In this document: in pieces, positions 18,725 through 60,609 of the stretch
How positions within the stretch are numbered: the stretch's first letter is position 1
Layout: every line of letters starts with the position of its first letter
DNA from: Enterobacteria phage Kha5h
Direction: 5' to 3' (one strand)
Sequence record: NC_054905.1
Length of the DNA: 64,000 nucleotides
The notes under the pieces: generated by a model
What the model was told of the DNA's origin: nothing
Seen by the model: only the letters and a program-made list of their open reading frames with translations
Databases searched by the model: none
Program-made: the position numbers and the translations under genes

Positions 18725-18746
18725 ATCCGTATTAGTTGATAGTTGT

Positions 18747-18776
18747 ATAGTACCATGGAAGAACAGTCTTGTAAAC
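18747..18776 (-). promoter_or_regulatory. early promoter with conserved 22-bp -10/leader element
   Basis: GTTTAC-N18-TACTAT; element AGTTGATAGTTGTATAGTACCA at 18734-18755. Confidence 0.6.
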
Positions 18777-18862
18777 AGTTTTGTGAAAATTTTTTAGGGA
18801 ATTCTAAAGGTCCAGAATCATCTGTTTTTCATAAGTATAGATTTATATTACTTGTATGAAAA

Positions 18863-18880
18863 AGGGACCCGGAGGTCCCT
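18863..18880 (-). terminator. hairpin after gene 43
   Basis: AGGGACC-CGGA-GGTCCCT. Confidence 0.55.
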
Positions 18881-18892
18881 AGATTTATTCTA

Positions 18893-21589
18893 TCAGCCAA
18901 ACAGGAAGTCTAACGAAGCTTTTTCTTCATAGTCCATGCCAGCCGATTCACACATACCCGCAAGCGGTTTAACAAACGATTTTTGGAACAAAGTTGAGTA
19001 GTCAATCCAAGACAGTACGTCAGAACGAATTTCTTTTGGAAGTTCTGTACCCGACGGCCAAGCAATGCATTTGTCACCAAATGGATTTCCTTCACGCAAT
19101 GGAAGAACCATTACTTTATTTCCATCCAAAATTGGAGCTACACCTAAACCGCTAACAGCTCGACGATAAGTTAGCACACCACGAATATGGAACGGACATT
19201 TAAATCCTGGCCAACCTTTATCATCATATTTCGCTATATCGTTCGCAGTTTTTACTTCAGCAATAACTTTATAGTCAAGTTGACGATATTCTTTCTCGAA
19301 GTTCTTGTAATATTCTTGGACAGACTCTTCACCTTCCTGAAGAATACGACGAATACTTTCTTCGAGAGCTTCTTGAACCGCTTTAGGCGTTGAACTTTGC
19401 TGAGTTTCCATACCCATGATTTTTAGATGCGGTTCAGCAAATCGCTTATCTTCCATATCATAAACGTTCAGAGCATAACGCTTTTTCGCTTTCCAAAATC
19501 CACCAACACCCTTTGAACCAAGCGGAGGGCAAGAAATAGCTTCACGGTCCATATGCATCAGATGCTCGCGGTTATTCATATAATCACATAACTCACGATA
19601 TGCAACATCAATCATAGGTTCCATCTTTTTCTTACCGAACTGATTCATAAATTCAACCAAATCGTTCTGCTCTTTGAATCGGTCAAGACCTACTTTTTCA
19701 ATAACTTTATCTACGCAAACATATACCGAATCAGTATCACCTGCTGCGATGAAATCTTCGCCATTAGTTCCGCACACTTTATTCAGATACTCATTAATTT
19801 TACGAGCAATCCACTGAATACCAACTTGGCCGAAAATTGTGATAGCAGTAGCATTTCGCAAATCATAGTAACGGAAATGAATATTACCAAGAGCACCGTA
19901 AAGGCTGTTAATAAGAATTTTACGGTTCAGCTGATTTGTATTAGCAAGTGTAGCTGCTTTTTCACATTCCTCAATCAGACTATTGAGAACAGATTCAGTA
20001 TAATTCGATAGTTCATTTAAGAAATCATCATTGAACTTAACATATCGTTCAACTTCTGGTTTAGTTGAACAAGACCCTGCGCCTTTCATAATAATCTTTT
20101 TAATAGCTTCGGCATTCATTTCTTCAGCGAACATTTTCTTTTTCCAATCTTTACGCTGGAAAAATACTTTAGCGATTTCCTTTGGAATGATACCTTCTTG
20201 ATGCTTATCGTACATCCATCCATTCGGAGAACAAGAATATTCATCACTCGGTTTAGGAGCTGTTCCTGCGATATATTCATGAATTGGATGAACTTTAAAC
20301 TGACCACGAATAGTCTCAGGACTAATGTTAACCTGACGAATAATGCTCGGATACAGAGACGTCAAGTCAAAACTCATAATATATCGACGAGCAATTGGTT
20401 TAGGTTCAAATACAAATGCACCCGGAAAACTTTGTTTAACGTGCGAACCTTGTTGAGGAATAACCTTGTGTTCACCTTTCAATGAGTTAAAAATAATAGC
20501 ATCCCAAGTTTTAATAGGACTCATTACACCAGAAAAAGGCATTTTAGCGTAATAAGACATACTTAAAACTAGATCGATAAACCCGCGAATTTTATCAATT
20601 GCTTGAACTGATTCTACGTCAATGATGTTATAACTAATGTATCGTTGATGATTAGTCTCACGAAGTTTATTAATAGGACCGTCGTATGGTAATTTACCTT
20701 TTTTGGTTTCATGTTGAGCAACTGATTCCAAAGAGAATGACGGCAAATTAGTAAAAGCAAATTTCTTGTACAAATCTAAATAATCAAGAATAGATACGCC
20801 ATCAATAGAATAAATTTCTTTGCTGCCGTACATATTTTGAATTAGTTTAGATTTTACTCGACCGATTGGAGAGAAGCGTTTCATACTACGTTCACCGAGA
20901 ACCATTTTAACGCGATTCATGATATACGGAACGTCAAATCCCTCAATATTCCAACCAGTAAAAATAGCAGGTCGTTTCTGTTCCCAGAGATTGATATATT
21001 CCATGAGCATATCACGCTCATTATCGAATGGCATATAAATTACTCGGTCAAGAATTTCTTGAGGAACTTCATCACCACCTTCACAGTCAAGCTTAGCAGC
21101 TAACTTTGCATCCCATTTTGATACTGAACCGTACATTGAATTCAAAAGGTCGAAAACATAAAAACGATCATCAATTGAATCGTAATGAGTGATAGCATCA
21201 ATTTCATATTCAGCTTTCATTGGGTCAGGAAATTTATCACCAGTAACCTCAATGTCACAGTTAGCTACACGAACAAATTTTCGGTCATAAACAATTTCTG
21301 AACCGTATGTATCACTGATATAAGCGAGTTTAAAATCGTTCATACCGAGAGCTTCGAGACCGATGTCTTCCATTCGTTTCATCCAATCTCGAGCATCTTT
21401 CATTGATGGAAATTTTTGAGGAGCGCAGTTTTTACCATAGATGTCTTTGTATTTTGACTCTTCCTTACAATGCCTAAACATAGTTGGAAGATATTCTACT
21501 TCACGAGTACGTTCCTTTCCGTTTTCATCAATATAACGTTCAACAATGTTATTTCCAACTGTTTCGATAGAGATATAAAATTCTTTCAT
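18893..21589 (-). CDS. 43: DNA polymerase gp43 (family B)
   Basis: 898 aa; exonuclease and polymerase motifs (DTDS); recognised as T4 gp43. Confidence 0.97.
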   Translation of the reverse strand: MKEFYISIETVGNNIVERYIDENGKERTREVEYLPTMFRHCKEESKYKDIYGKNCAPQKFPSMKDARDWMKRMEDIGLEALGMNDFKLAYISDTYGSEIVYDRKFVRVANCDIEVTGDKFPDPMKAEYEIDAITHYDSIDDRFYVFDLLNSMYGSVSKWDAKLAAKLDCEGGDEVPQEILDRVIYMPFDNERDMLMEYINLWEQKRPAIFTGWNIEGFDVPYIMNRVKMVLGERSMKRFSPIGRVKSKLIQNMYGSKEIYSIDGVSILDYLDLYKKFAFTNLPSFSLESVAQHETKKGKLPYDGPINKLRETNHQRYISYNIIDVESVQAIDKIRGFIDLVLSMSYYAKMPFSGVMSPIKTWDAIIFNSLKGEHKVIPQQGSHVKQSFPGAFVFEPKPIARRYIMSFDLTSLYPSIIRQVNISPETIRGQFKVHPIHEYIAGTAPKPSDEYSCSPNGWMYDKHQEGIIPKEIAKVFFQRKDWKKKMFAEEMNAEAIKKIIMKGAGSCSTKPEVERYVKFNDDFLNELSNYTESVLNSLIEECEKAATLANTNQLNRKILINSLYGALGNIHFRYYDLRNATAITIFGQVGIQWIARKINEYLNKVCGTNGEDFIAAGDTDSVYVCVDKVIEKVGLDRFKEQNDLVEFMNQFGKKKMEPMIDVAYRELCDYMNNREHLMHMDREAISCPPLGSKGVGGFWKAKKRYALNVYDMEDKRFAEPHLKIMGMETQQSSTPKAVQEALEESIRRILQEGEESVQEYYKNFEKEYRQLDYKVIAEVKTANDIAKYDDKGWPGFKCPFHIRGVLTYRRAVSGLGVAPILDGNKVMVLPLREGNPFGDKCIAWPSGTELPKEIRSDVLSWIDYSTLFQKSFVKPLAGMCESAGMDYEEKASLDFLFG

Positions 21590-21591
21590 AG

Positions 21592-21626
21592 ATATTCCTT
21601 AGTTTATAGCCCGAGTTATTAGGCTC
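21592..21626 (-). promoter_or_regulatory. gene 43 translational operator (hairpin + SD)
   Basis: mRNA GAGCCUAAUAACUCGGGCU hairpin (5-bp stem, 8-nt loop) next to AAGGAA SD, matching the T4 gp43 operator as I recall it. Confidence 0.6.
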
Positions 21627-21647
21627 TTGATATATTATACTCCAAAT

Positions 21648-21665
21648 AAGGGGCCGAAGCCCCTT
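21648..21665 (-). terminator. tetraloop hairpin between 21670..21906 and the gene 43 leader
   Basis: AAGGGGC-CGAA-GCCCCTT. Confidence 0.55.
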
Positions 21666-21669
21666 TGCT

Positions 21670-28570: not shown

Positions 28571-29772
28571 TATTTTGTAATAATGTCAAATTGCTCTTTA
28601 AAGCAGAAGCTTGAATCTTGATGCTGATACAAAAATTCATACGCTTTTTCTCGCTCACGGTCATAAAGAGCTCGGTCAGATGACAGTTCTTTAATACGCT
28701 CGAATGTTGATTCCATATCATTTTCATCAAACCAAACGATACCGCTATCATGCGAAATTAGCGGAGTATTATCAACACGGAATTTTAAATTTTCGCCAGT
28801 AGATTTCCAAAATACCGGAATTGTTCCACATGCACCAAGCTCGAGATGAGTATATTCTAAAGAACGCTGTAGATATTTTTTATCCAACTTACTCAACTGA
28901 TAACCAAATCCGGATTTACTCATACGTTCAAGCATTTCGCTATTTACATAACGGTCAAGAATTTGCGTTGGCAAATTAGGAGCAATTTTAATTTGGTCTA
29001 CTTGATGAAGACGATAATACTCGTATGGAATTCCTTTTTCTTTAATAGGAATGAACGCTGGAGAACGTTCCAGACCTTCCATAATAGTACTTAGTCCTGC
29101 AGGTTTAAGATGTTTTTCGTGAAAATCAAACATCTGATAAAAACCTTTCCATGTAGTCGTACGACCAATCCAACGGTTGATATTCATGTTAATTTCAGAA
29201 ACATCTTTCCAGTAAGTTGACCGAACCTTCGCAATATCCATAGGAGGCTGAAAGTTATATACTGTCGGTGCTTCTTCAATATCATCAAACAGAGAAACAG
29301 TTTCTGGATACCATTCTTTCATCAGAACTTTATTAAAATCACCATTATCAGAATGGCTAAAAATAACATCAGCTCGACGAACAGTTTCTTCTAATCCCAA
29401 ATTTCGGCGCAAAGAAAGAGAAGAATGGTCATGTTGATAAACTACAACACGAACAGAAGGTTTAATGTTATCAATAATTTTTTTATAGTTATTAATCGTG
29501 TCTTCTTCAACCGAAGTAGCAGGAACTGAATTGATAATTAGAATATCACAATCATTTACCAGCTTAAGTGTTTTATCATATTCTTTTGCCAATAAAACCG
29601 GAATTGAAAATGATTTATAATCATGCGCGCAATTACGAGTAAATGATTTATCTTTAGCATAAACCAAAGTCACTTCATGACCATTTTTAATAAACCAATC
29701 ACGTTGCTCGAGTGAGAATTTTGTTACACCACAACCTTCAAGACCTCGAGCCATAAAAATACATACTTTCAT
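28570..29772 (-). CDS. a-gt: DNA alpha-glucosyltransferase
   Basis: 400 aa; recognised as T4 alpha-gt; MotA-box promoter upstream. Confidence 0.9.
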   Translation of the reverse strand: MKVCIFMARGLEGCGVTKFSLEQRDWFIKNGHEVTLVYAKDKSFTRNCAHDYKSFSIPVLLAKEYDKTLKLVNDCDILIINSVPATSVEEDTINNYKKIIDNIKPSVRVVVYQHDHSSLSLRRNLGLEETVRRADVIFSHSDNGDFNKVLMKEWYPETVSLFDDIEEAPTVYNFQPPMDIAKVRSTYWKDVSEINMNINRWIGRTTTWKGFYQMFDFHEKHLKPAGLSTIMEGLERSPAFIPIKEKGIPYEYYRLHQVDQIKIAPNLPTQILDRYVNSEMLERMSKSGFGYQLSKLDKKYLQRSLEYTHLELGACGTIPVFWKSTGENLKFRVDNTPLISHDSGIVWFDENDMESTFERIKELSSDRALYDREREKAYEFLYQHQDSSFCFKEQFDIITK

Positions 29773-29796
29773 TTAATATCCTCTTTGTTTTGGTTT

Positions 29797-32880: not shown

Positions 32881-33016
32881 GATCGCAAATCATGCGTTTA
32901 TGTAACTTGAGTATAATATAGCAAACTTCAAAACTATTTACATGAGTAACACGAACAGCATTACCATTAATGAGATAATACTGTCCCTTTTTAATTTCTT
33001 TATCAACCATAACCAT
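32834..33016 (-). CDS. hypothetical small protein
   Basis: Track ORF 60 aa; early promoter 33047-33076. Confidence 0.4.
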   Translation of the reverse strand: MVMVDKEIKKGQYYLINGNAVRVTHVNSFEVCYIILKLHKRMICDRAAFSSVAKEIKLHG

Positions 33017-33046
33017 ATCAATTCCTCAAAGGTAATTCATATGTTA

Positions 33047-33076
33047 ATAATACCACGGTTTGAACTTGTTGTAAAC
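33047..33076 (-). promoter_or_regulatory. early promoter (GTTTAC-N18-TATTAT)
   Basis: Upstream of 32834..33016; follows the nrdH hairpin. Confidence 0.55.
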
Positions 33077-33155
33077 AACTTTGTGAAAAATATTTTAGGG
33101 AATGACAAGAAGGGAACGATAGCTTAGAATGGTAATATACAGAATGTAAGAAAGA

Positions 33156-33176
33156 AAGGCCCAGAGGGCCCGCCTT
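33156..33176 (-). terminator. hairpin after nrdH
   Basis: GGCCC-AGA-GGGCC core. Confidence 0.5.
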
Positions 33177-33813: not shown

Positions 33814-34284
33814 TTAATCATGTGTCCACACCCCATCGGTATTTGACCAAAGTCGCTGATTATCTGATCCTCGCCACAGCTTTTTGGTCGGAAGATTTTT
33901 CTCATACTTCCCATCAATAATAACATCAACATATTTAAGCATTTCTAGTTGTTTAATATCTTCAAATTTATATCCTGTCCACAACCAAATGCTTTTATTG
34001 GGATAAAGATTTTTTACTGTTTGAACAATGCAATGAATAACATCTCGGTTATCAGGATAGAGAGGGTCACCTCCAGTTATAGTCAATCCTTCTATATAAT
34101 CATTATTCAAACATTCAATTAATTGCTCTAGTGTTTCACCAGTGAATGGAATACCATTTCTAGCATTCCATGTTGATTTATTATAACACCCTTCACATTT
34201 ATGCAAACAACCTGTAACGAAAAGAACGACTCTGCAACCAGGGCCATTCACAAAATCGCAAGGATAAAATCTATCATAATTCAT
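33814..34284 (-). CDS. nrdG: anaerobic ribonucleotide reductase activase NrdG
   Basis: 156 aa; radical-SAM cysteine cluster CLHKCEGC. Confidence 0.9.
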   Translation of the reverse strand: MNYDRFYPCDFVNGPGCRVVLFVTGCLHKCEGCYNKSTWNARNGIPFTGETLEQLIECLNNDYIEGLTITGGDPLYPDNRDVIHCIVQTVKNLYPNKSIWLWTGYKFEDIKQLEMLKYVDVIIDGKYEKNLPTKKLWRGSDNQRLWSNTDGVWTHD

Positions 34285-36098
34285 TGGTGTTTAACCCTAT
34301 GCATGATTTCTTTATTTTTACCGAGATTAAATCCGCGTTCGTTCGGATTTCCCAAATAACCACATGTTCTTCTTATGGTATTCATCTTTTTAGGATCAGT
34401 TTCTCCACAAACTGAACAAACAAATCCGTTTTCAGTAGGAGTCATTTCATGGGTACTTCCACATGTAAAACACTTATCTACTGGCATATTAACACCAAAA
34501 TAATCTAAATGCTGCGCAGCATAATCCCATACAGCCTCAAGTCCTTTTAGGTTGTTTTTCATATCTGGAAGTTCAACATAAGAAATGTGACCACCCGTCG
34601 CAATGAAATGATACGGTGCTTCACGAGAAATCTTTTCAAACGGAGTGATATTTTCTTCTACTGAAACGTGGAAACTATTAGTGTACCAGCCTTTATCGGT
34701 AACATCTTTTACGCTTCCATATTTTTCTGTGTCGAGTTTACAGAAACGATAACACAAGTTTTCAGCAGGAGTAGAATATAAACTAAAAGCAAATCCAGTT
34801 CTTTCGGACCACTGTTTAAGATGAGCATTCATTTTAGTTAAAATTTCTTGTCCAATATCACGACCAACAAGAATATTCAATTCATGAATACCGATGTATC
34901 CTAAAGACACTGAACTTCTGCCGTTTTTAAATAACTCAATTATATCGTCATCAGGTTTAAGACGAACCCCGAATGCACCTTCTTGGTATAGAATAGGAGC
35001 AACAGTCGCTTTAACTCCTTTTAAGGAACTAATTCTACACATCAAAGCTTCAAAACACAAATCCATTCGTTCATTGAACAATTCGATAAATTTCTGTTCA
35101 TTGAACTGCGTTCCAATATAAGAATCTAATGCGATGCGAGGAAGATTCAATGTTACAACACCAAGATTATTACGTCCATCAAGAATTTCATTACCAGTCG
35201 AATCTTTCCATACGCTCAAGAAACTACGGCATCCCATCGGAGAAACAGGAATAGATGAACCAGTGATAGCTTTATTATTCTTAGCTGAAATAATATCAGG
35301 ATACATCCTTTTGCTTGCGCACTCTAGAGCAAGTTGCTTAATGTCGTAATTCGGATCGTCTTTATAAAGATTAACGCCTTCTTCAACGAACATAACAAGC
35401 TTAGGGAAAATAGGAGTTATCCCATCACGACCGAGACCTTTAATACGATTTTTCAGAATTGCTTTCTGAATCATTCGTTCAGTCCAGTCAGTTCCTGTAC
35501 CAAATGTAATTGTTACAAAAGGTGTTTGTCCGTTTGAACTAAAGAGAGTATTTACTTCATATTCATAAGCTTGGAATGCATCGTATACATCTTTTTCTGT
35601 TTTAGACTGGGCATAATTCAACGCATCAGCGATTTGCCATTTTTCTGCATCCTCAATATGTTTTGCATAGGTGCGTTTAACATAAGGAGAAAGTACTTTA
35701 TCTACATTAGCAAAAGTCGTTCCGCCATATTGGTGAGAAGCAACCTGTGCAGTAATTTGTGCCATAATTGCAGTAGCAACGCCAATTGATTTAGGAGTTT
35801 CAATCTGCGCATTACCTAGCTTAAATCCATTTTCAAGCATTCCTTTTAAATCTACTAAACAACAATTAGTAAATGGAAGAGCAGGGGAATAATCAATATC
35901 GTGGAAATGAATAATTCCGCTTTCATGCGCTTTCATAATAAAAGACGGGACCATATTTTTGGCAATGTGTTTAGACACAATACCAGCCATAAGGTCCCGT
36001 TGAGTTGGAAAAACACGAGAATCTTTATTAGCATTCTCGTTTAAAAGGTCTTTATTAGTTTTATGAATCAATCCTTCAATTTCTTTTTCAATTGTCAT
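34281..36098 (-). CDS. nrdD: anaerobic ribonucleoside-triphosphate reductase NrdD
   Basis: 605 aa uninterrupted; C-terminal glycyl-radical and CxxC zinc motifs. Confidence 0.95.
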   Translation of the reverse strand: MTIEKEIEGLIHKTNKDLLNENANKDSRVFPTQRDLMAGIVSKHIAKNMVPSFIMKAHESGIIHFHDIDYSPALPFTNCCLVDLKGMLENGFKLGNAQIETPKSIGVATAIMAQITAQVASHQYGGTTFANVDKVLSPYVKRTYAKHIEDAEKWQIADALNYAQSKTEKDVYDAFQAYEYEVNTLFSSNGQTPFVTITFGTGTDWTERMIQKAILKNRIKGLGRDGITPIFPKLVMFVEEGVNLYKDDPNYDIKQLALECASKRMYPDIISAKNNKAITGSSIPVSPMGCRSFLSVWKDSTGNEILDGRNNLGVVTLNLPRIALDSYIGTQFNEQKFIELFNERMDLCFEALMCRISSLKGVKATVAPILYQEGAFGVRLKPDDDIIELFKNGRSSVSLGYIGIHELNILVGRDIGQEILTKMNAHLKQWSERTGFAFSLYSTPAENLCYRFCKLDTEKYGSVKDVTDKGWYTNSFHVSVEENITPFEKISREAPYHFIATGGHISYVELPDMKNNLKGLEAVWDYAAQHLDYFGVNMPVDKCFTCGSTHEMTPTENGFVCSVCGETDPKKMNTIRRTCGYLGNPNERGFNLGKNKEIMHRVKHQ

Positions 36099-39781: not shown

Positions 39782-40783
39782 TTACTTAATTAACTGTAAA
39801 GCTTGTTCAAGACGATCAAGACGATTAACGGATTCTTCCCAAATCTTTTTAGCCTGCTCATATTCTTTCTGCGCTTTATTAGAAATTTCTAGAACTTCTT
39901 TATAAGCTTTTTCTAATGCAATAACTTCTGGACGAATTTCTACCGGTTCAGGTGAATCATCAAGACATTCCATTAGTTCCTCAAGGGTAGTTTCTTCTTT
40001 AGGAGTATTCACAATTTCATCACATTTTTGTTGGTAAATTTCTTTACTAGTAGGTGAATAAGCACATTTCACTTCACGAAGACTAATTACAATTTTATAT
40101 CCTTCCCATCCGCATATATTCTTAAAAGGATATGTATGAATATTTTCTACTGTTTCCATACAAAGTAATGCAGTCTCTAACTGACGAGTTATAGTGCTAG
40201 CAATTGAGAAAAATTTATTAATATTCTTTTGGTTAGCGTTTGGTGTAAAAAATCCATAATTCACAAAAATAGCTACTTTATTTTCATCAAGCTCATATTC
40301 TTTTACGATAATCATATCAGAAGCCAAAGGATGAATTTGACGATAATCGCCATAACATAATTTAGAAGCTGATTTTAGAATTTGTCCTTTGAAAAGTCTG
40401 AAATTACTAATCCAACGACGAGTAAAAATATTCTCAGGGTCTTCTTTATTATTAAGATGATAAGAATTAACATCACCGAACCAATTATATCCTACTACAT
40501 CTTTAGTTCGTTTAATTTCTTTCCCAAAATTACCAAGAATATCCCGATTAACCAAATATGAAAGAAGACGAGACTCTTTAAAGGTTTTCTTGATAACATC
40601 TTTATCTACACGGCTAGAAATTTTACGAATTTCATGAATAAATTTAGCAGAAGAAACAATACTTGCATCAACACTATTGAGCCATTGGTTGATAATAGAA
40701 AGAACGCTATTTTGGCCAAACATCGGTATAGCTTTATCATCAATAACGCTATTGAATGATTTGATATATTCGTTACGAGTCAT
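39782..40783 (-). CDS. coiled-coil-tailed protein, paralog family member 2 (333 aa from MTRNEY)
   Basis: SD GAGGAG 7 nt before ATG at 40783; early promoter 40812-40841 lies inside the longer track ORF. Confidence 0.55.
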   Translation of the reverse strand: MTRNEYIKSFNSVIDDKAIPMFGQNSVLSIINQWLNSVDASIVSSAKFIHEIRKISSRVDKDVIKKTFKESRLLSYLVNRDILGNFGKEIKRTKDVVGYNWFGDVNSYHLNNKEDPENIFTRRWISNFRLFKGQILKSASKLCYGDYRQIHPLASDMIIVKEYELDENKVAIFVNYGFFTPNANQKNINKFFSIASTITRQLETALLCMETVENIHTYPFKNICGWEGYKIVISLREVKCAYSPTSKEIYQQKCDEIVNTPKEETTLEELMECLDDSPEPVEIRPEVIALEKAYKEVLEISNKAQKEYEQAKKIWEESVNRLDRLEQALQLIK

Positions 40784-40811
40784 AATAATCTCCTCAGTAG
40801 AAAGTAAGAAC

Positions 40812-40841
40812 ATTATACCACATCCTTGTGGCAATGTAAAC
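40812..40841 (-). promoter_or_regulatory. early promoter (GTTTAC-N18-TATAAT)
   Basis: Upstream of coiled-coil paralog 2; -35 overlaps stop of paralog 3. Confidence 0.6.
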
Positions 40842-43214: not shown

Positions 43215-43742
43215 TTATGCGAGTACCGTCTTTAACCGTTCTTCAAACTTCCGAAGAGTATTTTGGCGTTCAGCTCTTTGCTTTTTGTAAGTTTCAATAC
43301 GCTCTGAAATGAGAGTGTATCGTTCATTTACTGATTCTTTCATAAAATCAGGAATTTCACGAGAAGCTTTAATCTCGTCAAATTTATCAATAACAGCTTG
43401 CTCTTCAGCAATTAAGTTATCATACATCAAAATATCTTTCTTGATGAACTCAATATCTTCTTGAGTTACACGAGATAATTTAGATGCTTTATCCTTTTTG
43501 TACTGTTCGTTAGTATCACGAGACCAGTGTAATGTACGATTTTTATTCGTATTCTTGTAAATTTCTACAATACCGATCTCGTCAATAATAACGATCCAAT
43601 TCCAACGGGATTTGTAAATTTGTCCTCCATCAACAGTGATTTCACCTCCAATTGAGATGTCATTAAAGAACTTGCTTTGTGCTTCTGATTTAAATTTACC
43701 ATCGTTGTAATTTACCAGGTTGAAAATATCTTTAGCGTTCAT
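43215..43742 (-). CDS. hypothetical protein with C-terminal coiled coil (175 aa from MNAKDIF)
   Basis: SD GGAGG before ATG at 43742; the track ORF's N-terminus translates the conserved promoter leader. Confidence 0.5.
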   Translation of the reverse strand: MNAKDIFNLVNYNDGKFKSEAQSKFFNDISIGGEITVDGGQIYKSRWNWIVIIDEIGIVEIYKNTNKNRTLHWSRDTNEQYKKDKASKLSRVTQEDIEFIKKDILMYDNLIAEEQAVIDKFDEIKASREIPDFMKESVNERYTLISERIETYKKQRAERQNTLRKFEERLKTVLA

Positions 43743-43770
43743 TTTGTGTTCCTCCGTAGTTGATAGTTGT

Positions 43771-43800
43771 ATAGTACCACAGAGGAACGGTCTTGTAAAC
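43771..43800 (-). promoter_or_regulatory. early promoter with conserved 22-bp element
   Basis: GTTTAC-N18-TACTAT; element at 43758-43779. Confidence 0.6.
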
Positions 43801-43802
43801 AA

Positions 43803-44117
43803 CTAAAAGAAACTTCTTTCACAATTTTTTCCACTGAACCACGCACTCACTGCTTTCTTAGTCTCAGGAGCAGTGTTATCCATAAACCATTCAAAGGCAG
43901 CCTTTTTATGATTCTGGAGGGCTTCTCGGGCTTTAATCTGCTCACGGTCTATTAACACTAACATATGAGCCTTTCTTGTCACCATGGGCTTCTTATGATT
44001 TTTTGAATACTCCCAATCATTTGTCCATCGCATCGTTGTTGCGAACTGAAATACTGCTTCTTTAATTTTAGTTTCGTAAATTTCACGAGCCTTTGAGTAT
44101 AACATCACTACCTCCAT
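43803..44117 (-). CDS. hypothetical protein
   Basis: Track ORF 104 aa. Confidence 0.45.
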   Translation of the reverse strand: MEVVMLYSKAREIYETKIKEAVFQFATTMRWTNDWEYSKNHKKPMVTRKAHMLVLIDREQIKAREALQNHKKAAFEWFMDNTAPETKKAVSAWFSGKNCERSFF

Positions 44118-44206: not shown

Positions 44207-45187
44207 TTATTTCAGAAGAGTAACCTCAGCAATTTCTTCCCAACCGTTTTTGTCGGTCATAATAAAGTCAGCAAGATAAAGTGCAGTACGCAGTGAAACA
44301 TTGCGTAAACGATTAACATTGACTTTCATCCATGATAATGCTTTATAAGTTTCTTCATCAGAAAGACCGCGCTTTTGCATCATGTCAGTTGAAAGAATAA
44401 CATCTTCAACCCTGACCATAATTTCTTCATTAGTGTGAACACCCAAATCTAAATAAACTGAGCGGGAAACTAATGCTTGTAAATGTGGAGCAAGTTTAGT
44501 ACCACGGTCTAATTCGCGGTCAATGTCAACGTTTGTGATAAAAACAATCGTTCCTTTAAATTCAAACTCACGCTCAATGCCTTTTTCTTCTAAGTAAGAA
44601 GATGCAGTGCTCCAGCAGACTTTACGGGTCTCTCCAGTGTCCAGAGCAGCTTTCAAAAGATTAAGAATGTCCATATCAGAGAAAACATCCACATCATCAA
44701 TCAAAAGGACAGAATTCTCTTCACGATTATTCCAGAGCTGTTCATAAAGACCGATACCAGAGATTTTACCGTTAATGCTTTTATATTCAATGTATCCAAT
44801 ATCATTTGCTTTATTTAAAGCTTTATCTAAAGAATACGTTTTACCAATGCCTGCCGCACCAGAGATAATTAATGAACGAATGTTTCCGTTAATAATACCA
44901 TTCGTCATCATTCCCATAACATTAAATCTTTTATTAATGCGGGTTTTCATATCTTCATATGATTCTTTAACTTCTTCAACTTTTACACCATCATATGAAA
45001 TGTCTGATTTGTAAACCCAAACACCGCGACGCTTACCGTCAATTTCAACAAAAACTTTACCATCTCCTTGTGCATCCACCGGAGCATTATCTGGGAACCA
45101 TTCACCTAAGAGCTCAAAAGTTCCAGAGATTTCTTTACCGAAGTAGATACCCTTATTGATAGTTACAGTTTTCATTTTATTCTCCAA
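44207..45187 (-). CDS. AAA+/P-loop ATPase
   Basis: 326 aa; Walker A GAAGIGKT, Walker B LLIDDVD, sensor-like FITN. Confidence 0.6.
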   Translation of the reverse strand: MENKMKTVTINKGIYFGKEISGTFELLGEWFPDNAPVDAQGDGKVFVEIDGKRRGVWVYKSDISYDGVKVEEVKESYEDMKTRINKRFNVMGMMTNGIINGNIRSLIISGAAGIGKTYSLDKALNKANDIGYIEYKSINGKISGIGLYEQLWNNREENSVLLIDDVDVFSDMDILNLLKAALDTGETRKVCWSTASSYLEEKGIEREFEFKGTIVFITNVDIDRELDRGTKLAPHLQALVSRSVYLDLGVHTNEEIMVRVEDVILSTDMMQKRGLSDEETYKALSWMKVNVNRLRNVSLRTALYLADFIMTDKNGWEEIAEVTLLK

Positions 45188-45209
45188 ATCCGTATCAGTT
45201 GATAGTTGT

Positions 45210-45239
45210 ATAGTACCATAAAGCTTTATGCCTGTAAAC
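45210..45239 (-). promoter_or_regulatory. early promoter with conserved 22-bp element (AAA+ ATPase gene)
   Basis: GTTTAC-N18-TACTAT; element at 45198-45219. Confidence 0.6.
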
Positions 45240-45272
45240 CGTTTTGTGAAAAATTTTTGAAATAAAAAAAAA

Positions 45273-45290
45273 GGGAGCCCGAAGGCTCCC
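45273..45290 (-). terminator. tetraloop hairpin after the nucleotidyltransferase gene
   Basis: GGGAGCC-CGAA-GGCTCCC, preceded by A-tract. Confidence 0.6.
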
Positions 45291-45292
45291 TA

Positions 45293-46306: not shown

Positions 46307-46764
46307 TCAGCCTTATATTCAATAACAGGACATACTTTAGCTTTACGCGCTTTTAAAAATTCGACGATAACCGATTTCTTGGGTTGAATAGGAGGTAAAC
46401 CTTTATACGCCCTATCAATATTTTCTACGTGTAAAGCATAATCCTTTTTCCATTTATAATCTTTATATTTTTCACGCAAATGTGCAGGAATAACAAATGA
46501 ACCGATAATAAGTAAAACAACCAAAAGCGCAAGTATAAATGCCGATGGAAGAAGAGTCCATAAACTACCGAAAATAAGCCAACGTTGTAGGCTTTCTGCA
46601 CAAATAATTGTTAGCCCTACGAGTATAGCACATCCAAAAATAGAAACGAAAAATGTAGGAATGGCAATAGACCAAAAATATGCGCATAGTGTCTTAGGTC
46701 GTTGCCATTCATCGTTAAACAATTTGAATAATTTATAATGCCAAGAGTTTTCATTAATAATCAT
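46303..46764 (-). CDS. membrane protein
   Basis: 153 aa, two TM helices. Confidence 0.5.
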   Translation of the reverse strand: MIINENSWHYKLFKLFNDEWQRPKTLCAYFWSIAIPTFFVSIFGCAILVGLTIICAESLQRWLIFGSLWTLLPSAFILALLVVLLIIGSFVIPAHLREKYKDYKWKKDYALHVENIDRAYKGLPPIQPKKSVIVEFLKARKAKVCPVIEYKAE

Positions 46765-46766
46765 AA

Positions 46767-47288
46767 TTATCCTTTCATTGAAGGTGTAACAGTTGTTAAA
46801 TACTTAATCATAGCCTCAGCTTCTGATTTTGATAGTGAAATTTCTTCACCGTTTTGGCGAATAGAAACAAAATCTGGATGACGATCACCACCAGCTTTTA
46901 AAACACACATATAAGTATCAGCTTCGCCTTCAATATTTGAAATGATTGAAGCAGTTCCACACGAATGTGGTTTTTGATAAATCAATACAGCTTTTCTTCC
47001 ACCATTTGACTGTTCATAGGCTTTTAATACATCAAACAAATCAGTTCTTTTATCAATAGCTAAAATGTTATTTTCATCTTCAATGTTAAATCCTTCGGAT
47101 ACTTCATAAAGCGTTACCCATAAATCGCCAATATCAATAACAGCATTTACTTTTCCACGGCTTTCAAGAGTATGACAAATTTTCTTGATTTCGTCATAAC
47201 TCATTTTAATAATATCATCTCCTTGACTAAGAAAGATGTCATTTTTAAATTCAACACGAATTAAACCACTTCCACTTGAAATAAACAT
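46767..47288 (-). CDS. hypothetical protein, paralog of 47295..47849
   Basis: 173 aa; shared C-terminal motif. Confidence 0.5.
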   Translation of the reverse strand: MFISSGSGLIRVEFKNDIFLSQGDDIIKMSYDEIKKICHTLESRGKVNAVIDIGDLWVTLYEVSEGFNIEDENNILAIDKRTDLFDVLKAYEQSNGGRKAVLIYQKPHSCGTASIISNIEGEADTYMCVLKAGGDRHPDFVSIRQNGEEISLSKSEAEAMIKYLTTVTPSMKG

Positions 47289-47294
47289 ATTTCC

Positions 47295-47849
47295 TCACTT
47301 TGAAATCATAGTTGGAATGACAGAATCAAGATAAGTCTTTAGTGCAATAGCTTCGTCTTTGGTAAATGTGACAATATGTGCTCGAGAATCATCATTTTGG
47401 CGAACAAGTACGACATCGCCATCTTCATAAGAAGTCTTGACATCCAAAGTCGTAGTATAGTTTGCAGCTACTGGATTAATAATGTTAGCACCGCGATCTT
47501 TAGCCCATTGAAGTTTAGCCTTTTCGGGTGTTTCGGCTGTTTCAGATTCTAAGAATTCTTTCACCTTGGCAACGAATGTTGCCCAATTGTTGATAGAAAG
47601 ACACATAAATTCAGTTTCAATATTACCGCCGTAAAGGCCACGATAAAAACGAACTTGGAGGTCACCTGTAATATTAGTTACACCGGTAACTCCTGAGGGA
47701 GCATAAGATAAAATCGCAGCCAGTTCCATAGGAAGAATAGTAATACTATCGTCTTCCTGCGTCAGAACGTATACATTACCGCGTTTTTCGATAACTAGGT
47801 CACCGAACAAATCAGTTGTTTCAATTACAGCTTTCATATTATTTACCAA
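47295..47849 (-). CDS. hypothetical protein
   Basis: Track ORF 184 aa. Confidence 0.5.
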   Translation of the reverse strand: MVNNMKAVIETTDLFGDLVIEKRGNVYVLTQEDDSITILPMELAAILSYAPSGVTGVTNITGDLQVRFYRGLYGGNIETEFMCLSINNWATFVAKVKEFLESETAETPEKAKLQWAKDRGANIINPVAANYTTTLDVKTSYEDGDVVLVRQNDDSRAHIVTFTKDEAIALKTYLDSVIPTMISK

Positions 47850-48024
47850 TTAAAGTTTCAATATAAGAATCAAGATTTACTTTAGCTTCTTCCATAAGAG
47901 TTTTGTATTTAATCTTGTTAGCATGTCCGGAGAAAGCTGATTCATCAATAATTGTTGATGTATGAACAGCTTTACTATACGTCTCAATTAATTCTCTTAA
48001 TTTAAAAGCCTGCTCACTTGTCAT
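47839..48024 (-). CDS. hypothetical small protein
   Basis: Track ORF 61 aa; early promoter 48157-48186. Confidence 0.4.
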   Translation of the reverse strand: MTSEQAFKLRELIETYSKAVHTSTIIDESAFSGHANKIKYKTLMEEAKVNLDSYIETLIGK

Positions 48025-48156
48025 TACATACTCCTCTGAATCATATCAATAATGTTGTTTACCAAATTATAAGTAAACATTGGGTAATTATATTGAATCA
48101 TCACATACACAACAAACAAAACTTTCATTCTCTTCTCCTTGGCAGTTGACAAGATT

Positions 48157-48186
48157 ACTATACCATAACCTTGCCAACTTGTAAAC
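48157..48186 (-). promoter_or_regulatory. early promoter (GTTTAC-N18-TATAGT)
   Basis: Upstream of 47839..48024. Confidence 0.55.
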
Positions 48187-48788: not shown

Positions 48789-48985
48789 GCCATGTGAGTT
48801 GCAACTTCATCACACATATTATAACGTTTCTTAAGAAATTCTACAAGTTCTTCACTAGTAACTTCATCCATGTCGACGAAAAAATCACCATTAATGATGA
48901 CGTAGATATTTCCTTCTTGATTGAGTGCTTCAATTTTCATGATGTTCTCCTCTTTATCCGATAGTTGTATAGTATCACAGCTCAA
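48752..48985 (-). CDS. hypothetical small protein
   Basis: Track ORF 77 aa; early promoter 48969-48998. Confidence 0.4.
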
Positions 48986-48998
48986 ACGGAAAGTAAAC
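48969..48998 (-). promoter_or_regulatory. early promoter with partial conserved element
   Basis: GTTTAC-N18-TACTAT; follows hairpin 49014-49031. Confidence 0.55.
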
Positions 48999-49013
48999 CG
49001 GTAAAATGAAAAA

Positions 49014-49031
49014 AGTCTCCCGAAGGAGACT
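49014..49031 (-). terminator. tetraloop hairpin after rI.-1
   Basis: AGTCTCC-CGAA-GGAGACT. Confidence 0.6.
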
Positions 49032-52675: not shown

Positions 52676-53137
52676 TCATTGAGTTTTAATTACTGCTTTA
52701 GAAGCCTTTCCTGGTAAACGACGACTGTTGATAATTGCCATCCTGCATTGAAGTGACGGGTTTTTGAACTTCTCATTAGGCTTACAAACTGTAAATCCAA
52801 GCCAAAGATTTCCATCTGTGATTTCTAAACGTCCAGGACGATATTCAATCCCATCAATAAAATCCTCGTCAATGTCAGGACGCGGAGGCATACTCAGGAA
52901 TTCATTAACTTCTAAAACATGGTCTTTTATTTTATGGAATAATTCAAAAACGTATGTCTCATCAATCTCCCGTTGAATTGCGCGATCAAGAAGATGCTGA
53001 GAATATTTTAGATGAAACGATGAGACTCCTGCTGCTTTTGATGCCTCACGAATCTCATTGTTAATTTGACGAAACTCCGACTCAAAGTGACGACGAAGCT
53101 TATTTCGACGGATAAAAACTTCTGTGTTGATAGTCAT
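52676..53137 (-). CDS. regB: endoribonuclease RegB
   Basis: 153 aa; recognised as T4 RegB; early promoter 53165-53194. Confidence 0.9.
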   Translation of the reverse strand: MTINTEVFIRRNKLRRHFESEFRQINNEIREASKAAGVSSFHLKYSQHLLDRAIQREIDETYVFELFHKIKDHVLEVNEFLSMPPRPDIDEDFIDGIEYRPGRLEITDGNLWLGFTVCKPNEKFKNPSLQCRMAIINSRRLPGKASKAVIKTQ

Positions 53138-53164
53138 GTTATTCTCCTCTTAACTGATAGAAAA

Positions 53165-53194
53165 ATTATACCACAGTCAAGAGGAAAAGTAAAC
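53165..53194 (-). promoter_or_regulatory. early promoter (GTTTAC-N18-TATAAT) for regB
   Basis: Consensus hexamers upstream of regB. Confidence 0.6.
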
Positions 53195-55342: not shown

Positions 55343-55816
55343 TTATTTGAATGATTTGACGTACTGAATAGAACCTTTACTATTCACGAAAGCGATTTTA
55401 CCATTTTTATTATACATGGTAGCAGTACGCTGATAGCCATAAGTTTGTTTACCAGATTGATAACCAACTAATGCGAAATTATCTTCACCCATTTTATTCT
55501 GTTTAGCGCGAATACGTTCATGACCGTGTGCCATAAGAACCTTAGCATCACCAGTTGAAATTGATCTACGAGTTTTTTCATCTTCAACTGTATTAACAAA
55601 GTCGTCAAATGAATCAAATTTAGCATGGGATTTATTATACAGTTTTCCATCTACTGCATAATTATATCCCTGTACATCCATCTCAACTTCTGTACCATCA
55701 TCCAATACAGCAGTGATTTTTTGACCTTTTTTAAATTTCAAAAGATCAGTAAAAGATTCAGCAATAATTTGAGAATTAATAGCTGCTTCAGTGATAAATT
55801 CTTGATATGTTTTCAT
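55343..55816 (-). CDS. internal-protein-like packaged protein
   Basis: 157 aa; N-terminus MKTYQEFITEA matches capsid targeting sequence of T4 internal proteins. Confidence 0.55.
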   Translation of the reverse strand: MKTYQEFITEAAINSQIIAESFTDLLKFKKGQKITAVLDDGTEVEMDVQGYNYAVDGKLYNKSHAKFDSFDDFVNTVEDEKTRRSISTGDAKVLMAHGHERIRAKQNKMGEDNFALVGYQSGKQTYGYQRTATMYNKNGKIAFVNSKGSIQYVKSFK

Positions 55817-55825
55817 ATGTTTCCT

Positions 55826-56242
55826 TTAAATGTAAATATTTTTGCCGTAATACTTGTACCAGTGTGGCTTCATTAAAATTTTTTCATCGAGTCGTTGTTG
55901 ACTCAATTTAATAGCTGATTTGCATGGATTATAATCATTTTTCCATTCTGCTGGAATATCGCTGATGTCAGGAACTTCAGTATCTTTTATACTAAACCCA
56001 CGTTTTAAGCATTCCGTTATAATGTCTGATTGACGCTTTCGCAAAAATTCTAACTTATCGTAAAAGAACGTAACATGACCAGAGCCTAAAATAAACTCGG
56101 AAGATATTTTAAAATCTTTAACCCGCTTACCATTTGCCACATGTTTACGAACTATACCAAAAACACGCGGCAATTCACGATACTCAGCCATAAGATGTTG
56201 GTCGGTCAGTTCAGAAACAAGTGTTAAATTGATACGAGTCAT
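55826..56242 (-). CDS. denV: endonuclease V (pyrimidine-dimer glycosylase) DenV
   Basis: 138 aa from [12 protein letters not shown]; SD GGAGG 5 nt upstream. Confidence 0.9.
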
Positions 56243-56269
56243 AATTTCCTCCAAGTAGTTGATGAATGT

Positions 56270-56299
56270 ATAGTATCAAAGTCCTTGGAGGAAGTAAAC
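56270..56299 (-). promoter_or_regulatory. early promoter with variant conserved element, for denV
   Basis: GTTTAC-N18-TACTAT; element variant at 56257-56278. Confidence 0.55.
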
Positions 56300-56300
56300 A

Positions 56301-57541
<1,241 letters not shown>

Positions 57542-58401: not shown

Positions 58402-58796
58402 CGTGATTCCTTAACAAATTTCATAATTTCGTTAAATTCATGCATATCTAATTTAAGCTGGTGTTCCTTTTTAATCTTTTTACACTGAGCTTTCCATTCA
58501 CGTACACGTTTACGATAATGCCTTCCTTGATACCAATATCCTACCCAATTTACAGGTACCAATAAAAATGGAACTACTAATGGAAGAATTAATACTAACA
58601 AAAATATTACGCCAGATTCAATATCAGTCATAAAGTCTATAACCATTCCAACAACCAATAGAATTACAAATGATATAGCTGTCACAGGACCTATTAATAC
58701 ATCAGTAGGAATTAGCTGACGCTTTAGTTCATACTTCACAGGTTTACTTGGAAGGTATAGTGATGGCTTTGACATATTCTCTACATTCCTTAACAA
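58383..58796 (-). CDS. membrane protein (e.4 position)
   Basis: 137 aa; TM helices; C-terminus FVKESRCKSQN. Confidence 0.5.
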   Translation of the reverse strand: MLRNVENMSKPSLYLPSKPVKYELKRQLIPTDVLIGPVTAISFVILLVVGMVIDFMTDIESGVIFLLVLILPLVVPFLLVPVNWVGYWYQGRHYRKRVREWKAQCKKIKKEHQLKLDMHEFNEIMKFVKESRCKSQN

Positions 58797-59349: not shown

Positions 59350-59369
59350 TCCTATTTACTCCAAGTAAT

Positions 59370-59385
59370 AGGGGCCGAAGCCCCT
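59370..59385 (-). terminator. tetraloop hairpin between e.6 and e.5
   Basis: AGGGGC-CGAA-GCCCCT. Confidence 0.55.
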
Positions 59386-59390
59386 TATCA

Positions 59391-59984
59391 TTATTTCAGA
59401 GAATTAATGTATTCCTGAACATCGGCAGAGGTAGTTTCAACCCCAGAAATATTACCGTTAAAGGTTTCAACTCGGGCAAGAGTATCTTCAATATCAACCT
59501 TAGTCAGTGCTGCAATTTCAACTACATCATCAGCAGTACTAATTCCGAGGGCATTCGCTGCGCGAGTTTCACGGATATATTCCAATTTAACCGCAAGTTC
59601 TTGACGAGCATCATCCAATTCAACTACTTTCTTGGCGATTTCAATTCGCATTTCAGCATACCCATCAGCTTTAGTAGTCAGCTGTTCAGCTGTTCGACGA
59701 TATAGCAAGCCGAGTTTAGCATGCATTGTTACATCTTGACCTTCAGAAAGAAGCTTGCGAATTTCACGCTCTTTTGATTCAGCCTGTTTATTCTTTTCAA
59801 TAACAAGTTCACGAATACGTTTTTCTTCATTAATAGATTTAACAGAAGCAGTTTTTAGATCTTTAATTTTATCAAGTAGTTTTGCTGCTGCAGCAGTATA
59901 CTGTTCTTCAACAGATAGATTTTTAGCCATAGCAGAACCAAGTTTAGTGCGAATAAACTCAACAATTTTCTTCAAAGTGTTCAT
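59391..59984 (-). CDS. coiled-coil protein (e.6 position)
   Basis: 197 aa, mostly helical heptad repeats; hairpin terminator downstream. Confidence 0.5.
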
Positions 59985-60027
59985 AGTATTTCCTTAGGTT
60001 GATTAAGATTTAAAATCCGTGAGAGTA

Positions 60028-60204
60028 TTATACTCCGGATAGTTTGTAAACTATTTCAACATCGCCTTTTGCTGCTTTATAACCTTCAGCCCAAGATATA
60101 ACCGAGTTTTTATCTGAAGATTCAAATTCTGGCATTGGGCTTTCGCCAATGTTCACACAATATGTTTCTTCATTTTCGTCGAACCAAATAATTAAAGTAG
60201 TCAT
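60028..60204 (-). CDS. small ORF (58 aa) below track cutoff
   Basis: SD GGAG 6 nt before ATG at 60204; MTTLIIWFDENEETYCVNIG... Confidence 0.35.
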   Translation of the reverse strand: MTTLIIWFDENEETYCVNIGESPMPEFESSDKNSVISWAEGYKAAKGDVEIVYKLSGV

Positions 60205-60272
60205 TTATTTCTCCGTTTCTATATTTGTTTTGATAAGTCTATAATAACACCGTCCTTGGTGTTTGTACACAA

Positions 60273-60536
60273 TTATTTCATATTATTGAAATATTCTTCT
60301 GCGATTTCGTCGTTATCATGGTAAACTTTAGAAGACAGTTTAACATAACCTTCAGCAGTGAACATGTTAATCACAACCTTTACAGTATACCACTGACCGT
60401 CTTCATTACCCATTACTGCATAAGTTTCAAACATCGGATGATCAGGACCGATAACTTTAATATCATTCACCGTACGACCAAAATCTTCTGAAACGCATTT
60501 CATAAAGAAGTTGAACAGTTCGCCGTAATTATCCAT
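60273..60536 (-). CDS. hypothetical protein (87 aa from MDNYGELF)
   Basis: SD GGAG upstream; the track ORF's N-terminus translates the conserved promoter leader. Confidence 0.45.
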   Translation of the reverse strand: MDNYGELFNFFMKCVSEDFGRTVNDIKVIGPDHPMFETYAVMGNEDGQWYTVKVVINMFTAEGYVKLSSKVYHDNDEIAEEYFNNMK

Positions 60537-60579
60537 TTCGTTCTCCAAGTTGTTTTCTGTATCAGTAGTTGATAGTTGT

Positions 60580-60609
60580 ATAGTACCATGGAAGGACAAG
60601 GATGTAAAC
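60580..60609 (-). promoter_or_regulatory. early promoter with conserved 22-bp element
   Basis: GTTTAC-N18-TACTAT; element at 60567-60588. Confidence 0.6.

Follow-up and report, generated by a model that had tools for sequence, protein, structure and literature searches.

A repeated 22-nucleotide element of phage Kha5h and the early promoters of T4-like phages

Enterobacteria phage Kha5h (sequence record NC_054905.1) carries a 22-nucleotide (nt) sequence, AGTTGATAGTTGTATAGTACCA, that recurs without change in front of non-orthologous genes, raising the question of what the element is and what has kept its copies identical. We address this question for a stretch of 64,000 nt of the genome, here called the window. 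A preliminary description, made from the letters of the window, had placed the repeat at six early promoters, had likened these to the promoter-stem-loop (PeSL) cassettes proposed for T4-type phages and had held that the conservation of the element extends beyond what a promoter needs. Our analysis indicates that the 22-mer is very probably the core of an early promoter of the sigma-70 class found in T4-like phages, accompanied by recombination among paralogous promoter cassettes that can be demonstrated in part. T4-type early promoters and the PeSL reading are both already known.

Identity of the repeated element

The window contains four exact copies of the 22-mer, all on the minus strand, and two near copies with four mismatches each (Table 1). 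No further site with three or fewer mismatches is present in the window and none of 100 dinucleotide shuffles contains a match, which rules out chance or low complexity as the source of the copies. Three of the exact copies begin where they had been reported (18734, 43758 and 60567), while the fourth begins at 45197 rather than 45198. Both variants are likewise real, one at 56257 as reported and the other at 48956 rather than 48958.

Read on the minus strand, the element has the form TGG-TACTAT-ACAACT-A(+1)TCAACT, that is, an extended -10 motif (TGG, -15 to -13), the -10 box TACTAT, the discriminator ACAACT and then the predicted +1 A. It spans -15 to +7, with TTTACA counted as -35 to -30, and from the predicted start 7 of its 22 bases would be transcribed, the last six being TCAACT. 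All six focal sites have GTTTAC(A/T) at -36 to -30, a 17-bp spacer (counted from TTTACA to the -10 box), TGn upstream of the -10 box (TGG in four, TGA in two), a -10 box of the form TAnnnT (TACTAT), and a minus-strand gene whose leader carries GGAG or GAGG followed by an ATG 20-37 nt after the predicted start. This anatomy, together with the orthology to T4 described below, bears out their proposed identity as early promoters, and a Shine-Dalgarno (SD) sequence and start codon do follow each element as had been claimed. The 18 nt that were said to separate the element from GTAAAC (GTTTAC on the minus strand) are the distance to the -10 hexamer TACTAT; the 22-mer itself lies 15 nt away. A middle and a late promoter were ruled out by inspection, as the 22-mer has neither the MotA box (TGCTT at -30) nor TATAAATA. 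No known RNA family coincides with the elements at Rfam gathering thresholds, the matches in the window being ten tRNAs (62010-62837).

Start sites were assigned by the rule that +1 lies 35 nt after the first T of TTTAC. This rule reproduces Pe133295, the cd.2/cd.3 promoter named in the T4 GenBank record, and gives T4 position 8182, consistent with the name of P8.1, an experimentally analysed T4 early promoter whose orthologue in the window is the dexA promoter (794). The T4 records NC_000866 and AF158101 contain no promoter features and a single note naming Pe133295.

The window is that of a Tequatrovirus and is 92-99.5% identical to T4 relatives, with two stretches (3.5 kb and 0.6 kb) that are 98-100% identical to Tequatrovirus genomes including AdolfPortmann, Sf22 and KarlGJung. 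A chain of BLAST matches shows the whole window to be colinear with T4 from ~7.4 to 73 kb at 94% identity, and T4 gene names can therefore be transferred to it. The focal promoters, numbered as in Table 1, are orthologous to the T4 sites imm.1 (18775), nrdC.8 (43799), nrdC.10 (45238), mobD.5 (48997), denV (56298) and e.8 (60608). A motif search of the window and of T4 finds the 22-mer or near copies of it at gene-facing promoter sites and at the orthologous sites in T4. The exact 22-mer is found in T4 upstream of six genes (imm.1, nrdC.8, nrdC.10, e.8, ndd.6 and motA), and near copies are found at motB, mobD.5, denV, trna.4, frd.3 and ndd.4; the T4 orthologue of the 18775 promoter has TTTACA at T4 27079 and the 22-mer from T4 27059. 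Scanning T4 with the pattern used for the window (below) gave 34 promoter-like hits, a few of them inside genes. Their most frequent -10 hexamer is TACTAT (14 of 34), and taking the most frequent base at every position from -15 to +7 yields the 22-mer. The exact copies thus represent the T4 early-promoter consensus. A scan of IMG/VR for the 22-mer recovered 20 stretches on seven contigs, with three to six copies on each of two full-length (~168-170 kb) contigs; these matches were too few for a survey of context, and genomes from a phage collection were compared instead.

T4 early promoters have been described as 'uber' promoters that combine UP, -35, TGn and -10 elements with 'additional regions of consensus' (PMC2988021), and as carrying GTTTAC at -36 to -31 with an A-rich, UP-like stretch further upstream, from -40 to -44 (PMC1524935). 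The focal promoters resemble T4 early promoters (P8.1, Pe at motA, regB) in GTTTAC(A/T), the 17-bp spacer, TGn, TAnnnT, the UP element and the consensus around the start, as well as in genomic position and in the 22-mer that is identical at the six T4 sites. What differs from T4 in this phage is an extra open reading frame (ORF) behind the imm.1 promoter and another arrangement of internal-protein genes and denV, and otherwise nothing of substance. The UP-element and extended -10 promoters of E. coli (the rrnB P1 UP consensus and the TGn class) likewise have TGn at -15 to -13, whereas the phage promoter joins all four elements and has TTTACA, not TTGACA, as its -35 box.

A clear UP block, A5-6/T4-6-CACAAAAC, is present at 18775, 45238 and 60608 and at the non-focal promoter 33075. 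Its form at these sites is AAAAA(A)TTTT(TT)CACAAAAC, and as A5T6-CAC-A4 it is nearly the consensus. With a 1-bp offset, AAAAATTTTTTCACAAAAC fits what we take to be the full UP consensus of Estrem et al. 1998, AAAWWTWTTTTNNNAAA. The UP position holds no more than an A-tract at 43799 and 56298, and is occupied by the T-run of a terminator at 48997. The sequence TTTTGTGAAAAATTTTT, which had been reported ahead of several copies, is exact at the 45238 promoter alone; its other occurrences, at 18775, 60608 and the non-focal 33075, are length variants. ATTCCCTAAAA is indeed exact at the three sites named for it (18792-18802, 33093-33103 and 60637-60647), each immediately 5' to an early promoter's UP block, although the promoter at 33093 is one without the 22-mer. 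A longer form around it, TAGAATTCCCTAAAA, is common to the 18775 and 60608 cassettes, and ATTCCCTAAAA may be the remnant of a terminator arm or belong to a paralogous repeat.

Across 45 comparisons of orthologues (from T4, PinkRuby and Shfl2) GTTTAC is invariant, and the segment from -21 to +8 differs at ~1% of positions compared with ~7% in the flanks. Orthologues agree over this segment irrespective of which sequence a given promoter has there, and no other part of these intergenic regions is as well conserved. It lies within the region that RNA polymerase contacts in the open complex, and such contacts would account for its conservation. The 22-mer (-15 to +7) falls entirely within this stretch and equals the T4 early-promoter consensus, so that the claim of conservation beyond the needs of a promoter does not hold for it. 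What does go beyond those needs is restricted to shared spacers and leaders, reflecting paralogy and recombination, and to the promoter-spanning hairpins described below.

The six focal sites belong to a larger class, of which the original set was a part. Scanning with the pattern TT[TG]ACN-N16-18-TAnnnT and retaining intergenic, gene-facing sites on the minus strand gave 16 promoters that share this design, the focal six among them. All 16 have GTTTAC(A/T) at -36 to -30, with G at -36, and 15 have TGn. For annotation, 16 early promoters with predicted starts, six terminators and likely RegB sites can now be placed on the genome.

We suggest that unmodified host RNA polymerase would use the UP/GTTTACA/TGG/TACTAT promoter immediately after infection to make early leaders of 20-37 nt, and that the ribosome site in these leaders would later be cut by RegB/S1, inactivating the early mRNAs. 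The leader ribosome sites, GGAG(A)AYARAA, are of the type targeted by the phage RegB/S1 nuclease. Matches to the RegB/S1 consensus GG*AGRAYARAA extend to 11 of 11 positions at 18775 and 45238 (GGAGAATAAAA), 10 at 60608, 9 at 48997 and 8 at 43799 and 56298.

Several observations weigh against identifying the 22-mer as a promoter core with a part in recombination. Other sequences stand in place of ACAACTATCAACT at 10 of the 16 window promoters, half of the focal sites (three of six) are without a clear UP element, TACTAT departs from TATAAT at two positions, and the start sites of the six are predictions from sequence. Furthermore, indel edges are not enriched at promoter junctions, and a role in shuffling is shown for individual loci only. 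On the other side stand the anatomy of the sites, their orthology to T4 sites, the identity of the 22-mer with the class consensus and the conservation from -21 to +8, all of which are directly observed.

Probable exchange among promoter cassettes

PeSL (promoter-early stem-loop) cassettes were first described for RB49/phi1 (Arbiol et al. 2010, PMC2839356) and have also been described for PST/T4 and nt-1/KVP40 (Comeau et al. 2014, PMC4122927), the PST/T4 cassettes having the form TTTACW-N17-TAYWAT with a stem-loop upstream and SD and ATG at the 3' end. This consensus fits all six focal sites. Like the PeSL of RB49/phi1 and PST/T4, the cassettes of the window combine an AT-rich region, an early promoter and a stem-loop with SD and ATG as the 3' end, and they lie next to variable small ORFs; crossovers likewise fall between the -10 box and SD/ATG, the interval to which those of RB49/phi1 were mapped (PMC2839356). 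The resemblance to PeSL noted at the outset is thus upheld, and extends to the mosaic make-up of the cassettes and to gene modules attached at the 3' edge of the 22-mer.

A stable stem-loop is found beside each focal promoter. The tetraloop hairpins previously said to pair with several copies correspond to UUCG terminators at two sites, 33 nt (45238) and 16 nt (48997) from the -35 box. Terminators also precede 18775 and 60608, by 87 and 139 nt, and the stem-loops at 43799 and 56298 are promoter-spanning hairpins. Overall, an automated scan of the 175 nt preceding each of the 16 promoters detected an intrinsic terminator in six cases, four of which concern focal promoters. The stem-loop of the PST/T4 PeSL lies just upstream of the promoter, whereas here this is the case for six of 16 only, most of the others having a promoter-spanning hairpin that reaches the SD.

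An alternative explanation is that the element is primarily a recombination cassette, whose identity is kept by gene conversion or module exchange (PeSL shuffling, mini-circles) and not by selection on the promoter. The leading families of direct repeats in the window consist without exception of promoter cassettes. Between the segments 18702-18756 and 45165-45219 identity reaches 96% and includes the SD and ATGAAAA (GGAGAATAAAATGAAAA). The nearest neighbours of the cassettes on the two sides of the core are discordant. At 18775 the spacer is nearest that of T4 ndd.4 (93%) and the leader nearest that of 45238 (96%); at 45238 the spacer is nearest T4 frd.3 (93%) and the leader nearest 18775 (96%); and at 60608 the spacer is nearest 18775 (71%) and the leader nearest T4 motB (93%), the spacer of which is unrelated. 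Related genomes also differ at these points. PinkRuby and CM8 carry different gene modules inserted right after ...ACAACTATCAA of the 45238 promoter (...ATCAA, ~45199), each module being followed by a second early promoter before nrdC.10. The nrdC.10/nrdC.11 slot exists in three alternative states, and provides a concrete, testable example of module exchange at a promoter core. In Shfl2 an extra module of promoter and ORF lies just upstream of the 12558 promoter (12569-12596). T4 is without the 233-bp ORF that follows the 18775 cassette, with the junctions in the repeated start ATGAAAAT, and at the denV promoter (56278/56300) the window ceases to be homologous to T4, PinkRuby and Shfl2. Relative to these three genomes, indel edges lie inside three of the six focal cassettes.

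These observations on individual loci do not extend to the promoters as a class. Across the three genome comparisons, indel edges occur at 5 of 16 promoter junctions and at 31 of 119 other gene junctions (odds ratio 1.3, p=0.76), so that the expected coincidence of element boundaries with gene gain and loss holds at loci such as 45238 and not as a general enrichment. In contrast to what the PeSL model implies, the association is statistically indistinguishable from that of ordinary gene junctions, and the promoters in this window should be regarded with caution as being no more prone to breakpoints. Many of the indels relative to T4 instead coincide with homing endonuclease genes. The deletion expected between the exact copies that lie 1,439 bp apart (43758 and 45197) was absent from the 45 records listed from a spread sample of 795 matching ones. 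Moreover, each promoter is conserved from -21 to +8 between orthologues whatever its sequence, which points to function. We consider a primarily recombinational role to have slightly less than an even chance, and see it as a partner of the promoter explanation rather than as a true rival. Taking the element as an early promoter core, paralogous cassettes would have traded parts through recombination in the core they share, a partly demonstrated second cause of the identity between non-orthologous copies, and the core may serve as a junction for the swapping of gene modules in the manner of the PeSL model.

Selection of the transcribed part (+1 to ~+13, AUCAACUAC...) as a 5' leader RNA signal, acting on stability, translation or RegB/S1, is improbable. 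Short stereotyped leaders (ATCAACTAC-TGATAC-GG..GGAGAATAAAATG) do recur in non-orthologous genes, and two leaders match the RegB/S1 consensus fully, but just 7 of the 22 bases belong to the transcript, RegB recognition as published depends on GGAG with its 3' A-rich flank and not on the 5' end, and the exact copies differ between +8 and the SD. Least probable is that the block after the -10 box (ACAACT-ATCAACTAC) is an operator for a phage or host protein, for example the factor behind the shut-off of early promoters 2-3 min into infection: although this shut-off is unexplained by AsiA or ModA (PMC2988021, PMC3014915), and although the block is nearly invariant between orthologues and placed where a bound repressor would interfere with open-complex formation or with escape, it occurs in only about one third of early promoters, the others being unrelated there despite a shut-off described as general, it has no dyad symmetry, and in promoters with spanning hairpins its positions covary with the leader, which suggests a constraint at the level of RNA and not of protein binding.

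Two segments that T4 lacks lie between repeats of other kinds. Copies of a terminator-like hairpin (GCCCnnnCCGAAAGGTTGGGGC; 36 nt, 89% identical) at 60739-60774 and 61294-61329 flank a 520-bp segment, which looks like an indel bounded by repeated stem-loops and not by promoters. At 11220-11268 and 11578-11626, 49-nt direct repeats (98%) over a gene start flank a 309-bp segment (ORF 11224-11580), which looks like a tandem gain or loss via the repeated start region. The ORF between the 18775 promoter and imm.1 (18476-18712, 78 residues) encodes a product with a hydrophobic, signal-like N-terminus; it is absent from T4, T6 and RB6 and present in ~318 of 727 matching records.

Hairpins spanning the promoters

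To characterize RNA structure at the promoters we folded the read-through transcript from -34 to the ATG and expressed its stability as a z-score, using the 119 other gene junctions as controls. Z-scores of -4 or below were found at 7 of 16 promoter junctions and at 2 of 119 other junctions (Fisher p=3e-6). The few controls with z of -3 or below include the known hairpins of genes 49 (36568) and e (57067), which validates the test. Promoters preceded by a terminator have z-scores near 0, whereas those of the remaining promoters are mostly below -4 (p=0.02 in this window; p=0.004 with ten independent T4 loci added). Strong hairpins are found at seven promoters without an upstream terminator (736-795, 5938-5996, 13001-13062, 43740-43800, 48126-48186, 53135-53194 and 56240-56299). 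These hairpins have their 5' arm ahead of the predicted start, within the spacer that follows the -35 box or within the -10 box and discriminator, and their 3' arm is in most cases the SD region. A TAG overlapping G-36 is often the stop codon of the upstream ORF; in the denV cassette the stop TAG lies 2 nt before G-36.

Two of the focal promoters hold the 22-mer in the loop of such a hairpin. At 43799 the 5' arm GTTCCTCTGTGGT (43776-43788, in the spacer) pairs with the 3' arm ACTACGGAGGAAC (43748-43760, containing the SD) to give -19.4 kcal/mol and z of -5 to -6; by the predicted start, the 5' arm would lie outside the transcript of the gene's own promoter. At denV (56298), TTCCTCCAAG (56284-56293) pairs with CTTGGAGGAA (56246-56255, the SD), with -17.8 kcal/mol and z of about -6. 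The regB hairpin of 13-16 bp joins the spacer TTCCTCTTGACTG to CAGTTAAGAGGAG (the SD). A hairpin that contains the SD and has an internal promoter start between its arms is predicted at 56298 and 43799 and at the non-focal promoters 53193, 5995 and 794.

The pairing is retained among relatives with other arms. At denV the arms are TCTCCTGTAG and CTACAGGAGA in T4, and TCTCCGTTTG and CAAACGGAGA in other T4-like contigs; the regB and nrdC.8 hairpins likewise keep their pairing with different arms, in three clades each. There is a second denV architecture (type B), in which the -10 box and discriminator pair with the region from SD to ATG. In its 10-bp helix 97.3% of cells are paired compared with 83.8% in shuffles (0 of 500 reach the observed value), and 6 of 10 pairs have changed on both sides, with slid controls at 37-63%. 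This formal covariation count covers the type B set, while the type A arms come from single-sequence folds; RNAalifold gave no consensus for the type A denV promoters, the MAFFT alignment having put the arms out of register. G.U pairs in the spanning hairpins occur in the sense orientation only, which points to structure at the RNA level.

A tentative interpretation, which we regard as possible rather than probable, is that the cassettes come in two insulated designs, one preceded by a terminator and having a free consensus core, the other abutting an ORF and having a hairpin between promoter DNA and SD. Transcripts from the gene's own early promoter would then lack the 5' arm, leaving the SD free and also open to RegB. 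Read-through transcripts would hide the SD, unless the arm were melted by a ribosome that terminates at the stop codon overlapping G-36 (translational coupling). The T4 genes e, soc, 49 and I-TevI have a comparable arrangement: the SD, the AUG or both are sequestered by a hairpin in read-through RNA, and the transcript from an internal promoter lacks the 5' arm (PMC3014915). There, however, the internal promoter and the gene are late, whereas the hairpins described here (denV, nrdC.8, regB, dexA and others) accompany promoters of early sigma-70 design. The spanning hairpins are consequently not members of that family, and at most may work like it.

If true, the rule would extend the logic of genes e, soc and 49 to early promoters in general and would account for some of the 'extra' consensus (TTCC/TCTCC behind the -35 box); its confirmation would bear on how T4-like phages confine early-gene expression to transcripts from the genes' own promoters. 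Neither PeSL paper (PMC4122927, PMC2839356) discusses translation, and no earlier description of hairpins spanning early promoters was found in the literature searched, most of the large T4 literature lying outside it.

Among the controls, the scan also flagged two starts that are not at promoters, ~25192 (the start of the 45.2 homologue, z -6.4) and ~11055 (the start of gene 61, z -3.2), in both of which the 60 nt that precede the ATG are predicted to be unusually stably folded.

Further features of the window

The GC content of the window is 31-38%, its GC skew is negative throughout, and essentially all long ORFs are on the minus strand. The promoters, cassettes and terminators are collected in Table 1.

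Table 1. Repeat copies, early-promoter cassettes and terminators in the window (all on the minus strand)
Feature	Position	Strand	Details
Exact 22-mer	18734..18755	-	TGG 18753-18755; TACTAT 18747-18752; ACAACT 18741-18746; predicted +1 A 18740; TCAACT 18734-18739
Exact 22-mer	43758..43779	-	predicted +1 43764; forms loop of promoter-spanning hairpin
Exact 22-mer	45197..45218	-	predicted +1 45203
22-mer variant TGATACTATACAACTATCGGAT	48956..48977	-	4 mismatches; predicted +1 48962
22-mer variant TGATACTATACATTCATCAACT	56257..56278	-	4 mismatches; predicted +1 56263
Exact 22-mer	60567..60588	-	predicted +1 60573
18775 promoter cassette	18710..18802	-	precedes 78-aa ORF that T4 lacks, then imm.1
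18775 cassette, parts		-	ATTCCCTAAAA 18792-18802; UP block; G+TTTACA 18770-18776; ATG 18710-18712
18775 cassette, SD	from 18722	-	RegB-type GGAGAATAAAA
Intrinsic terminator after gene 43	18863..18880	-	AGGGACCTCCGGGTCCCT then T run; 87 nt upstream of 18775 -35 box
43799 promoter cassette, nrdC.8 homologue	43740..43830	-	-35 TTTACA 43794-43799; ATG 43740-43742
45238 promoter cassette and terminator, nrdC.10 homologue	45173..45291	-	UUCG terminator 45272-45291; -35 45233-45238; ATG 45173-45175
45238 cassette, UP block and spacer		-	UP block AAAAATTTTTCACAAAAC; palindromic spacer CATAAAGCTTTATG
45238 cassette, SD	from 45185	-	RegB-type GGAGAATAAAA
48997 promoter cassette and terminator, mobD.5 homologue	48938..49031	-	UUCG terminator 49014-49031; -35 48992-48997; ATG 48938-48940
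56298 promoter cassette, denV	56240..56299	-	-35 TTTACT 56293-56298; ATG 56240-56242
60608 promoter cassette, e.8 homologue	60534..60651	-	TAGAATTCCCTAAAA 60637-60651; UP block; -35 60603-60608; ATG 60534-60536
60608 cassette, SD	from 60546	-	GGAGAACGAAA
GAAA-tetraloop terminator	60748..60771	-	139 nt upstream of 60608 promoter
dexA early promoter	736..795	-	orthologue of experimentally studied T4 P8.1; spanning hairpin -23.7 kcal/mol, z -6 to -7
srd homologue, early-promoter-like site	4592..4660	-	weakest of the 16
modA.2 homologue early promoter	5938..5996	-	-10/discriminator pairs with SD and ATG in hairpin, z -4
mrh.2 homologue early promoter and UUCG terminator	8040..8134	-	terminator 8113-8134
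61.4 homologue early promoter (12558)	12499..12559	-	-10 TACTAT, without TGn
dmd early promoter	13001..13062	-	promoter-spanning hairpin, z -4
55.6 homologue early promoter	33014..33171	-	without 22-mer; ATTCCCTAAAA 33093-33103; UP block; -35 33070-33075; terminator 33157-33171
nrdC.5 homologue early promoter	40781..40841	-	-10 TATAAT
Early promoter with -10 box in hairpin loop	48126..48186	-	arms AGTTGGCAAGGTTA / TAATCTTGTCAACT; G.U pairs where T4 has A-U
regB early promoter	53135..53194	-	without 22-mer; -10 TATAAT

Most of the large differences from T4 concern the T4 homing-endonuclease and intron genes segF, segA, mobB, mobC, I-TevII, mobD and segB, together with dam, which are absent from this phage or replaced in it (8416-9238, 9798-9819, 16002-16949, 29763-29788, 34264-34284, 35560-35563, 46307-48013 and 61638-62321). 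The ten tRNA genes recognized by Rfam stand in a row, compared with eight annotated in T4, and the segB of the T4 tRNA region is absent.

The internal-protein (IP) locus (55343-55816 and 56301-56597) is unlike that of T4, different IP genes flanking denV. The IP genes share a start that encodes a capsid-targeting-type N-terminus (ATGAAAACATAT...), the corresponding repeats lying at 55782-55818, 56548-56584 and 11188-11224. The last of these overlaps a small ORF (11058-11222) whose start resembles the same capsid-targeting-type N-terminus.

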